From assembly GCF_000237865.1 (NCBI RefSeq), contig NC_017459.1, positions 1,710,001 to 1,742,000 of the forward strand: a stretch of DNA of 32,000 nt, given 5' to 3'. The translations under genes were made by a program, and so were the position numbers. The notes under the pieces were generated by a model, which did no database searches, was not told the DNA's origin, and saw only the letters and a program-made list of their open reading frames with translations. This stretch comes from Haloquadratum walsbyi C23. GTDB lineage: Archaea; Halobacteriota; Halobacteria; Halobacteriales; Haloferacaceae. Below are positions 10,890-12,770 of the stretch, one piece after another. Each line of letters opens with the position of its first letter. The stretch's first letter is position 1.

Positions 10890-12770
10890 ATGGGTAAGTA
10901 CACGCGCCGTGCTGCGTTAGGAGCAATAGCTGGCGGAATTGTGCTATTCATTAGTGATACGGCTGGATTTTCAAGTATCGAAGGCGACCGAACTGCTGAT
11001 ACGCAACTGAGTGATGACGGATCGGCGATTATCAAACTAACCGGCGCTGTGCTCGACACGAATTCAGATCGACCCACTGAGCCGGCAGAAATCACGATTA
11101 CGAACAACAGTGAAGTCCCATTTGATACAACCAGCGAAATTACAATCACAAGCCAAAATAAGAAGTTCCGCTTCCGAGAGAAGAATACTGGAAGTGCAGC
11201 ACAGACGCAACTGACTCAAAACGACTTAATTGACGCTACTGGACAATTTAATCCAGGTGATAGTTTCAATATCGAGATTTTAACAGCATCTAATGAAACT
11301 GGCAGTGTTACTGATAATTTACAGGCGGAATTCCGTGCTCCGTCTGAGAGCCTTACAGCCGACCTATCGCGTCAGATATCGCTGCAATTCAAAGCAACCG
11401 GGCAGTTGGTCTATGCAAGTGATCAAAATACCCTCAAAGTGCTTGATACAGTACAGAATAATATTACGAATCCAGCAGAATCAAGCAACATTGACTCAGT
11501 TGGATCAATTGTCGCCGATCTCACAGGCGACGGGAATGCTGATATTGCATACATCCGGAATAAACGATTGGAATTAACACAGATATCTATTGACAGAGAT
11601 AATGATATTACAACAGTATTTGGTCCAGGTAACAACACCGCCAACAGTCCAGTCGAACCAAATACTGACGGAACACGCGTTGCAGCCGGCGATCTTGATT
11701 CCTGGCCAGATAAAAGGGTGGTTGACAGCAGCAACGCCAACAATAATAACAATAATAACAATAATAACAACAACGACAACGACAACGACAACGACAACGA
11801 CAACGACAACGACAACGACAACGACAACGACAACGACAACGACAACGACAACGACAACGACAACGACAACGACAGCGGTAGGGTGAGAAGTGAATACTCG
11901 GTATCGGGTAGTGTTGCACTGTTTGCTGACACGGGAAGAAACAAGATCTTTGCAGCACAGCCAAGCACAGCAACAAAAGATGCAGCAGTAGAGGTACTTA
12001 TCGATACCTCAAATATCGGTGGTGCTGCTGGCGCTGCAGGACTTGAAGATATTGATAATGACGGATTAGCTGAACTTGTGTATCTGAATAGTTCTCAGCA
12101 ATTAAATTTCATCAAGCAGATTGACACGACAAAATTTAATTCTCCGGGTGAGTGGGTGAATAGCCAGAGTAATTATTCAAAGGTGCTAAAAAAATATAAA
12201 GATAGCAGTAATAGTTCAAAATTCGGAAAGACTGTTGGCGACAACAATAATATCGCGTTCGGAAAGGCAACGCTCGGGAATGCAAGTGTCGGGTCAAACG
12301 CTAATGTTGGCGTGAGTGCGATTGGAGAATTTAGTGCTAGTGATAATAAACAGATTCCGTTTGTAGATGGATCAAATGAACTTGCAGTCATTAATCATAA
12401 AAACGAGAAGACAAATCTCACGACGAATACATCTGCAGTCAAAAAAGCCGCCATCGCGCCTGTTGATATCGATGATAATGATATTACTGAGCTCTTTTTC
12501 ATTGGAGACTCTAATAAACAATCACTCCCAGATGCTGATACGGAAGACGTTGACCTGAACAATAGCGGACCGATATTCTACGTTAGCAATCCGGCTGGAG
12601 TAATTGATGACGGTGAGAATGCCAATATTGAATTACTACAAGTTCCGCCTGATCAGTATTCGAGAAGTGAGGTGATTGGAAGTCAAAAGCCAAATGGAGA
12701 TCCCAACGACACACCTGGATACATCATCCCAGACATCAGCATTGGGCTAAATGCTGGAACAGTAATTTAA
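10890..12770 (+). CDS. Secreted FG-GAP/VCBS-like beta-propeller protein with a TasA-like leader module and an internal poly-N/(ND)17 tract
   Basis: ATG start. The N-terminus is MGKYTRRAALGAIAGGIVLFISDTAGFSSIEGDRTADTQL, followed by PAEITITNNSEVPF. Blade-like motifs are ADLTGDGNADIAYI, LEDIDNDGLAELVYLN, IPFVDGSNELAVI and APVDIDDNDITELFFIG. It is a clear paralog of 4148..5483 (KKAGVAPVDIDADGDLELLFFG vs KKAAIAPVDIDDNDITELFFIG). Confidence 0.85.
   Translation: MGKYTRRAALGAIAGGIVLFISDTAGFSSIEGDRTADTQLSDDGSAIIKLTGAVLDTNSDRPTEPAEITITNNSEVPFDTTSEITITSQNKKFRFREKNTGSAAQTQLTQNDLIDATGQFNPGDSFNIEILTASNETGSVTDNLQAEFRAPSESLTADLSRQISLQFKATGQLVYASDQNTLKVLDTVQNNITNPAESSNIDSVGSIVADLTGDGNADIAYIRNKRLELTQISIDRDNDITTVFGPGNNTANSPVEPNTDGTRVAAGDLDSWPDKRVVDSSNANNNNNNNNNNNNDNDNDNDNDNDNDNDNDNDNDNDNDNDNDNDNDSGRVRSEYSVSGSVALFADTGRNKIFAAQPSTATKDAAVEVLIDTSNIGGAAGAAGLEDIDNDGLAELVYLNSSQQLNFIKQIDTTKFNSPGEWVNSQSNYSKVLKKYKDSSNSSKFGKTVGDNNNIAFGKATLGNASVGSNANVGVSAIGEFSASDNKQIPFVDGSNELAVINHKNEKTNLTTNTSAVKKAAIAPVDIDDNDITELFFIGDSNKQSLPDADTEDVDLNNSGPIFYVSNPAGVIDDGENANIELLQVPPDQYSRSEVIGSQKPNGDPNDTPGYIIPDISIGLNAGTVI
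11739..11873 (+). repeat. In-frame microsatellite: (AACAATAAT)x3, AACAAC, then perfect (AACGAC)x17, encoding N11(ND)17
   Basis: Counted directly. The perfect hexamer runs 11772-11873 (102 nt). The preceding 9-mer repeat runs 11739-11765. Confidence 0.95.

Follow-up and report, generated by a model that had tools for sequence, protein, structure and literature searches.

Two large proteins encoded in a 32,000-nucleotide stretch of Haloquadratum walsbyi C23 (NC_017459.1, positions 1,710,001 to 1,742,000; this whole stretch is called the window, and coordinates are counted from its first letter) join a pilin-like N-terminal domain to a C-terminal FG-GAP-type β-propeller. Their genes, for a short paralog of ~440 amino acids (aa) (4161..5483, plus strand) and a long paralog of 626 aa (10890..12770, plus strand), lie in what is, judged from its gene content, a complete taf locus (Tat-fimbriae, Tafi; Tat, twin-arginine translocation) at ~171-14638. 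The reading we favor, and consider probable, is that both proteins are TafC-class terminal subunits of a Tafi strand-donation pilus, with the propeller as outward binding head. This reading builds on the domain architecture, the propeller fold, the family-level homology to FG-GAP_3 and to the TafC N-domain, the cleavage and donor-strand motif, and the conservation of the locus. The tip-adhesin concept has already been published for Tafi, and the propeller head is the new variation of it; the pair of putative tips in one locus and the apparent combination of a Tat-type tip with Sec-type pilins are new here as well.

Architecture of the two large proteins

Sequence similarity extends over both domains of the two large proteins, which are true paralogs (BLASTP E=5e-21, 28% identity). 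Their C-terminal regions are FG-GAP_3/VCBS-type β-propellers, as the initial annotation had recognized: AlphaFold2 (AF2) models, Foldseek searches and repeat self-comparison agree on this, and 49 of 60 family members match Pfam FG-GAP_3 (PF13517) at E<=1e-3 (best 1e-11). The six peptides that had been quoted as examples of the repeat are all present, with ADLTGDGNADIAYI at 11514-11555, LEDIDNDGLAELVYLN at 12042-12089 and VDIDDNDITELFFIG at 12462-12506 of the plus-strand open reading frame (ORF) 10890-12770 and the other three at 5034-5078, 5178-5222 and 5310-5354; the interval 10890-12770 given for both thus covers just one of the two paralogs. The short paralog itself scores 26.8 bits against FG-GAP_3 (E=7.9e-6; gathering threshold, 26.9), and more distant propeller homologs exceed the threshold (P0038 with 60.7 bits and P0041 with 30.1 bits; P numbers denote homologous proteins and L numbers related contigs). 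Profile self-comparison of the C-terminal domain gave off-diagonal matches at shifts of ~46, 105 and 151 residues (E=3.5e-13, 9.5e-13 and 2e-6), so that a repeat of ~46-52 aa over ~296 aa corresponds to approximately six units, which fits six blades.

The fold assignment draws mainly on the better AF2 model, that of the short paralog (60 homologs; mean predicted local distance difference test score [pLDDT] of 84, with 86-96 in most C-terminal blocks), in which ~24 strands past residue 148, in groups of four, form a compact six-bladed propeller. A Foldseek search of this model against the PDB returned 61 matches at E<=1e-3, mostly β-propellers together with immunoglobulin (Ig)-like pilus chaperones, the latter to the N-domain. 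They include teneurin (1.4e-7), the six-bladed kelch protein KLHL2 (TMt 0.65, root mean square deviation 5.0 Å) and the lectins PLL/PHL of Photorhabdus, the integrin-like Psathyrella velutina lectin (PVL) and the fucose lectins AFL/AAL. The propeller of the long paralog (11400..12767, plus strand) has approximately six blades, with sizeable insertions in its loops and an extension at the C-terminus. Its model (mean pLDDT 72, predicted template modeling score 0.72) shows ~24 β strands in fours, a pattern broken by a disordered insert at residues 276-334, a 60-residue insertion and the C-terminal extension, and the propeller aligns with that of the short paralog blade for blade. Foldseek matches of this model are weaker (five at E<=1e-3), probably owing to the loop insertions; propellers of PorZ, ROS1, CRTAC1, LRP6 and DDB1 are among the matches. 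CRTAC1 was retrieved by sequence and by structure. Family and structure searches gave no laminin-G or concanavalin match for the C-terminus.

Asp-rich loops are well above chance in both proteins, with a loose motif occurring four times in the long paralog (shuffle mean, 0.14; 0 of 5000 shuffles reach four) and three times in the short one (shuffle mean, 0.05; 1 of 5000 reaches three). The five to seven repeats per protein reported at first are too many: each has two canonical D-x-D-x-D/N-G-x-x-E loops, invariant across the family (D387/D389/E395 and D526/D528/E534 in the long paralog, D292/D294/E300 and D385/D387/E393 in the short), and one or two degenerate ones. The domain is better described by its approximately six blades than by six Ca-type loops. 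These conserved DxDxDGxxE loops would, by their motif, bind Ca.

The N-termini are pilus-subunit-like, as had been claimed, and have signal peptide, cleavage site and donor-strand segment in common with two small paralogs, the TafE-like pilins of the locus. A twin-arginine motif and then a stretch of 15 uncharged residues open both large proteins (YTRRAALGAIAGG... and YTRRGALALFITGG...), which points to export by the Tat route. The twin-arginine signal peptide of the long paralog, MGKYTRRAALGAIAGGIVLFISDTAG (10890..10967, plus strand), has its R6 and R7 nearly invariant across the family and a predicted cleavage site just before F27. The sequence A/G-F-S-S-x-E/K-x-x-R comes after the Tat signal in both large proteins, and both TafE-like proteins carry GAF[ST]TVEAERTADVDVAGD (GAFTTVEAERTADVDVAGD in TafE-like pilin 1); exactly four ORFs in the window contain [AG]F[ST][ST]xExxR, namely, the two TafC-like and the two TafE-like genes. 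Cleavage by the TafD peptidase before the conserved Phe is likely, since the mature TafA of Haloarcula hispanica (Har. hispanica) starts at the equivalent residue, Phe-30.

The donor-strand segment FSSIEGDRTADTQLSDDGSAIIKLTG and an Ig/jelly-roll-like domain follow at residues 27-170 of the long paralog (10968..11399, plus strand). Similarity to the small pilins is evident at the start, between the long paralog and TafE-like pilin 2 by BLASTP (E=5e-5, residues 16-54) and between the TafC N-domain and TafE profiles by HHalign (E=1.2e-9, residues 7-51). The proposed kinship with the small paralogs holds for these first ~50 residues, but beyond them an identity of fold is not demonstrable directly, and the globular part appears tied to the pilins only via the NCBIfam TafC, TafE and TafA models, which match the N-domains of 30/60 (best 3.2e-13), 19/60 and 1/60 family members, respectively. 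The family profile also matches the N-terminus of the Natrinema Tafi pilin (PDB 9P0A) at E=3.5e-5. In both AF2 models, the globular part (residues ~43-170) is an all-β sandwich (pLDDT ~65-93; strands at 48-166 with pLDDT 65-89 in the long paralog), whose Foldseek neighbors are Ig-like pilus chaperones and pilins; the likeness to PapD and Caf1M is of the generic Ig-like kind.

The taf locus and its conservation

The locus combines TafG, TafD, a TafF-like protein, two TafE-like and two TafC-like proteins and a regulator in the TafB position, and the system is therefore not an uncharacterized TasA-like fiber. TafG (171..1229, plus strand; Pfam DUF5305, E=1.7e-37) is the proposed partner of the peptidase. 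The adjacent TafD-type signal peptidase I, of the archaeal/SipW-like kind (1236..2390, minus strand), has a membrane-spanning C-terminal extension (Pfam Peptidase_S26, E=9.9e-6; TIGR02228, E=1.1e-13; SipW model, E=1.8e-6). NCBIfam TafC matches the short paralog with E=5.4e-7 and residues 2-170 of the long one with E=5.7e-8. TafE-like pilin 1 (8952..9698, minus strand; 248 aa from ATG 9698) and TafE-like pilin 2 (13126..13830, minus strand; 234 aa) match NCBIfam TafE with E=4.6e-14 and E=3.3e-13. The latter is also similar to 9P0A over residues 13-167 (E=2e-6), and the metagenome collection lists its exact sequence in 76 blocks. No TafA ortholog was found at the locus, where the partner pilins are TafE-like, and family scans of the locus proteins revealed no chaperone or usher families. 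The regulator (14024..14638, plus strand) consists of a DUF7344 winged helix (Pfam E=3.5e-30) and two C-terminal membrane helices; it is a candidate TafB counterpart by its place in the locus, and a DUF7344 gene recurs in the taf loci of L001, L004, L006, L011 and L012. The G+C content of the window is ~45%, the encoded proteins are acidic, and the nearest named relatives are Haloquadratum walsbyi proteins, with 74% identity.

The candidate anchor is a TafF-like protein of 769 aa (5880..8189, minus strand) with an N-terminal signal, two PKD domains (E=5e-18) and a C-proximal membrane segment. It matches NCBIfam TafF weakly (E=4.3e-4, residues 31-277) and is kept beside propeller TafC in L001, L002, L004 and L011. 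This protein is much larger than published TafF. It has a near-threshold PGF-pre-PGF match (TIGR04213; 26.9 bits versus a cut-off of 28) with an internal 'TPGFSPFAIF', followed in order by the two PKD domains, the membrane segment and a further C-terminal domain of ~140 aa.

Three other proteins are encoded within or next to the taf genes. Two small ones, of 163 aa (3253-3744, plus strand) and 205 aa (8201-8818, minus strand), have an N-terminal membrane or signal segment and a β-rich domain, and family scans gave no match for either. Both are kept beside taf genes in L004, and the 163-aa protein is also present in L005; by description alone, they can be likened to Natrinema TafF1/TafF2, which have a single helix and a jelly-roll domain. 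A DUF7504 protein whose N-terminus is long, acidic and of low complexity (14767-16071, minus strand) adjoins the taf genes of the window and those of five related loci (L001, L004, L006, L011 and L012); lying outside the published tafA-G set, it could be a conserved companion of taf. In L007 (225-1832), a DDE transposase gene directly adjoins the gene for a TafE-like 2 protein identical to that of the window and occupies the spot held here by the DUF7344 regulator, which suggests insertion-sequence activity at the taf locus in some populations.

The export signals of the locus are of two kinds. Neither TafE-like pilin has a twin-arginine motif, and both look Sec-type (MIPKGKLLALV... and MISLLRVVAVLL...), and both TafC-like proteins keep RR; one pilus locus thus appears to use two export routes, one for a Tat-type tip and one for Sec-type pilins. 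Sec-type TafE homologs are known, with 71 reported from haloarchaea, and a mixed locus is not discussed there (PMC12337348).

Relatives of the two large proteins come in two sets. The long type has ~20 close homologs, all of them metagenomic, and an exact look-up of the 626-aa protein gave no match; the short type has 67 relatives in a word-indexed search. An exhaustive profile search found 657 representatives at E<=1e-3, most of which have the propeller alone in common and show other architectures, many with multiple propellers. In every informative contig, the propeller TafC lies beside TafD, TafG, TafE, TafF or DUF7344 genes; these are L001 and L011 (Halobacteriales metagenome-assembled genomes [MAGs]), L002 (a Halobellus MAG), L004, whose gene order is that of the window, and L012 (a metagenome contig). 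Both large proteins have, as TafC does, a twin-arginine signal with a TafA/TafE-like N-domain, and genes of this kind lie in a taf locus with TafD, TafG, TafE/TafA and TafF in the window and in five related contigs. The H. walsbyi orthologs are annotated just as 'FG-GAP repeat protein' or 'VCBS repeat-containing protein.' Homologs from Halonotius and Salinirussus, known from the protein alone, match over the full length, a Salinibacter contig carries the propeller part, and no Natrinema protein occurs among the named cluster members. In the literature searched, we found no paper that ties Tafi to a propeller or FG-GAP domain.

The propeller also occurs on another pilus type. In six homologs (in the set P0214-P0220; P0214 is encoded at 8001-9287 of L013), it lies behind an archaeal type IV Pilin_N domain, and the propeller is therefore read as a filament-displayed head. 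Other propeller homologs are fused to DUF7261 or DUF7266, and the L013 contig stops at the P0214 gene. A 985-aa homolog, P0034, combines part of a TafC-like N-domain with the propeller and AglB oligosaccharyltransferase domains, which could be a real fusion or an artifact of gene calling or assembly.

Proposed tip position, alternatives and variation

A candidate tip or adhesin component, as initially proposed, is the best reading of the two proteins, because their genes sit in a pilus locus. The novelty claimed for a fiber-subunit-like N-domain with an adhesive C-domain at the tip did not survive, since that arrangement was already described for Har. hispanica TafC (PMC11821415) and for the Natrinema tip protein (PMC12337348). 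In the assembly that we propose, the RR-bearing TafC-like precursors would be exported folded via Tat, and TafD together with TafG would cut before the conserved Phe of the A/G-F-S/T-S/T-x-E-x-x-R motif. The freed N-terminal strand of the TafC-like protein would go into the groove of a TafE-like pilin, and more pilins would join by strand donation, as in 9P0A, until the TafF-like membrane protein takes the last strand at the base. The TafC-like protein would then stand at the distal end with its Ca-stabilized propeller outward as the binding head, in place of the laminin-G-like lectin domain of Har. hispanica. Polarity and tip position in this scheme follow by analogy from published work on Har. 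hispanica tafi (AlphaFold models, mass spectrometry), and adhesion by the propellers is likewise suggested by analogy.

Other roles can be drawn from the same observations. The TafC-like proteins might act mainly as initiators (nucleators) of assembly that supply the first donor strand, as TapA does for TasA, with the propeller serving Ca-dependent bundling of filaments, contact between cells in Haloquadratum-type sheets or sensing instead of recognition of an external ligand. In the published model, TafC is termed an 'activator for assembly' and likened to TapA (PMC11821415); the Tafi of Natrinema form bundles and favor biofilms (PMC12337348), and the two Ca-type loops are invariant in the family. 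Initiation is, however, compatible with adhesion, type IV pilin N-termini bear the propeller too, and the head is swapped between lineages (laminin-G-like, 'unique' or propeller) in a manner typical of ligand-binding modules, so we regard this as an unlikely account of their main function. Nor do we see much chance that they are free secreted or surface FG-GAP/VCBS proteins that merely use a pilin-like Tat signal and TafD site and act outside the filament. The plain repeat-protein annotation of the H. walsbyi orthologs would agree with such a role, as would the many other architectures of the propeller among the 657 representatives and its occurrence on the Salinibacter contig, but conservation runs ~25 residues beyond the predicted cleavage site into the donor strand, the N-domain matches the TafC, TafE and TafA models, and in every informative contig the gene is strictly linked to taf genes. 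A place at the cell-proximal end, or interspersed along the shaft as minor subunits, seems very improbable. Tafi polarity comes so far from models for any Tafi, and AlphaFold3 runs with the full protein set were inconsistent in the published work; yet the TafC-like proteins have no membrane anchor, whereas the TafF-like protein has one and accepts the donor strand in published models, and a propeller of 300-450 residues is hard to fit in a filament of ~45 Å (4.5 nm).

Several observations weigh against a terminal subunit with a propeller as binding head. HHalign against the small TafE profile detected no similarity between the large and small paralogs past approximately the first 50 residues, and 9P0A is not in the top 50 Foldseek matches of either model. 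Both proteins score far below the cut-off of the NCBIfam TafC equivalog NF052521 (32.2 and 29.1 bits versus 410, with positions 3-147 of 373 matched), owing to the lack of a laminin-G-like domain at their C-termini. Pfam gave no FG-GAP match for the long paralog itself, and the similarity to propeller lectins is generic and points to no particular ligand. The tip position of the type member TafC is itself taken from AlphaFold models, and the short paralog, with no canonical start in this lineage, may be poorly expressed or decaying.

The start of the short paralog is indeed unusual. Its frame is open from 4152, after an in-frame TGA at 4149-4151, and no canonical in-frame start was found between 4140 and 4400; the syntenic contig L004 has the identical TGA and the identical GCA at 4158-4160, where the 91%-identical ortholog of L005 has ATG. 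A dN/dS of ~0.2 was found over the 74 codons upstream of GTG 4383. Translation may begin at ATC 4155-4157, or the start may have been lost very recently. A sequencing error was rejected, since the L004 sequence is identical, and a +1 frameshift from the out-of-frame ATG 4148 was not adopted, its sole support being one synonymous site. Gene callers therefore begin at GTG 4383 and report a product of 366 aa without signal or donor strand (P0167, 32 member sequences).

Variation of another kind marks the long paralog. An in-frame microsatellite, (AACAATAAT)3.6 followed by (AACGAC)18.2, occupies 11739..11874 on the plus strand (Tandem Repeats Finder, 99-100% matches) and encodes N12-(DN)n within a disordered loop of the propeller (pLDDT <50 at residues 276-334). 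The region is 191 nt long in the window versus 50 nt in four related contigs (L004, L006, L008 and L009). L006 and L008, with the 50-nt form, encode an identical TafE-like 2 protein and a complete 579-aa TafC, and P0002, P0004 and P0019 carry other acidic low-complexity inserts, placed in this propeller loop or in one close by.

Taken together, these features invite a more far-reaching proposal, which we offer tentatively and find doubtful as a whole: the FG-GAP propeller would be an interchangeable adhesin head of haloarchaea on two unrelated filament types, Tafi and type IV pili, and the locus would hold two alternative propeller tips, switchable in expression or surface, one with a strain-specific 141-nt in-frame microsatellite expansion in a surface loop and the other without ATG yet under purifying selection. 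Tat would export the folded tip and Sec its pilins. If so, a Haloquadratum-like planktonic archaeon would have a means of variable Ca-dependent cell-cell or cell-surface recognition.

Members of the propeller-headed subfamily occur in the taf loci of genomes related to Haloquadratum, of Halobellus and of uncultured Halobacteriales. Should the subfamily hold as proposed, the Tafi tip would be a modular platform for different binding domains, abundant saltern archaea without known pili would gain concrete adhesion candidates, Tafi and type IV pili would be linked via a common head domain, and public 'FG-GAP/VCBS repeat protein' annotations could be corrected. A Tat-type tip on Sec-type pilins would also bear on the chaperone-free assembly of strand-donation pili.

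Comparison with known systems

Descriptions of Tafi date from 2023-2025, with studies of the tip proteins in two species; we know of no binding specificity for a Tafi tip protein. In Har. hispanica, tat-fimbriae consist of the major subunit TafA, the adapter TafE and the minor subunit TafC, at approximately one per 100 TafA, with TafF as proposed anchor, TafD as peptidase, TafG as a DUF5305 protein and TafB as regulator (PMC11821415). TafC was detected in purified tafi, AlphaFold puts it at the tip, and it joins a TafA-like N-domain to a laminin-G-like C-domain (PMC11821415); it has already been proposed as the Tafi tip adhesin (Galeva 2025; Sonani 2025). Like the proteins described here, Har. 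hispanica TafC (HAH_0242; NF052521) has a Tat RR signal, a TafA/TafE-like N-domain of ~145 residues with a donor strand, a two-domain layout with the C-terminal domain outward, and a locus with TafD, TafG, TafE, TafF and a membrane-bound regulator. The proteins of the window differ from it in having a six-bladed FG-GAP_3 propeller of ~300-455 aa instead of the laminin-G/concanavalin-like domain, in scores far below the family cut-off, in the two paralogs per locus and in the Sec-type TafE-like partners.

The Tafi of Natrinema sp. J7-2 (PDB 9P0A; proposed tip protein NJ7G_2827) likewise have a TafE-like major pilin and no TafA, but their pilin uses the Tat route, in contrast to the seemingly Sec-dependent pilins of the window. 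They assemble by strand donation, bundle and promote biofilm formation, and their tip protein has one domain in common with TafC and an outer domain called 'unique,' variable outer domains being noted (PMC12337348). The domain that NJ7G_2827 has in common with Har. hispanica TafC is the inner one; its outer domain is different.

TasA/TapA of Bacillus subtilis is more distant. It likewise forms a donor-strand fiber; its locus encodes a dedicated SipW-type signal peptidase, and an accessory protein initiates assembly. The TasA-like label initially given to the N-terminal module nevertheless finds no backing in sequence, as the proteins have no Peptidase_M73 or DUF1102 match and the system is Tafi; membership in TasA/camelysin and DUF1102 was rejected, with no Peptidase_M73 match among nine locus proteins (Pfam, E<=0.1). 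Published work gives Tafi pilins a topology of their own and only remote structural kinship to TasA, via AbpA.

On the side of the head, integrin-alpha, CRTAC1 and Psathyrella velutina lectin likewise have FG-GAP-type repeats with DxDxDGxxD/E loops in a β-propeller. The propellers here have approximately six blades rather than seven or eight, two canonical loops and a repeat of ~46-52 aa versus ~60 aa in integrins, and the likeness is at the repeat or fold level alone. PilY1/PilC of bacterial type IV pili is a tip-associated adhesin with a Ca-binding β-propeller, but the filament system is unrelated and PilY1 is not a pilin fusion. The chaperone-usher adhesins FimH/PapG follow the same logic, with a pilin-like domain joined by strand complementation and a separate binding domain at the tip. 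Here, in contrast, chaperone, usher and outer membrane are missing, the binding domain is C-terminal (the reverse order), and the families are not homologous. The polarity also differs, in that the tip subunit of the published Tafi model donates a strand, whereas FimH accepts one.

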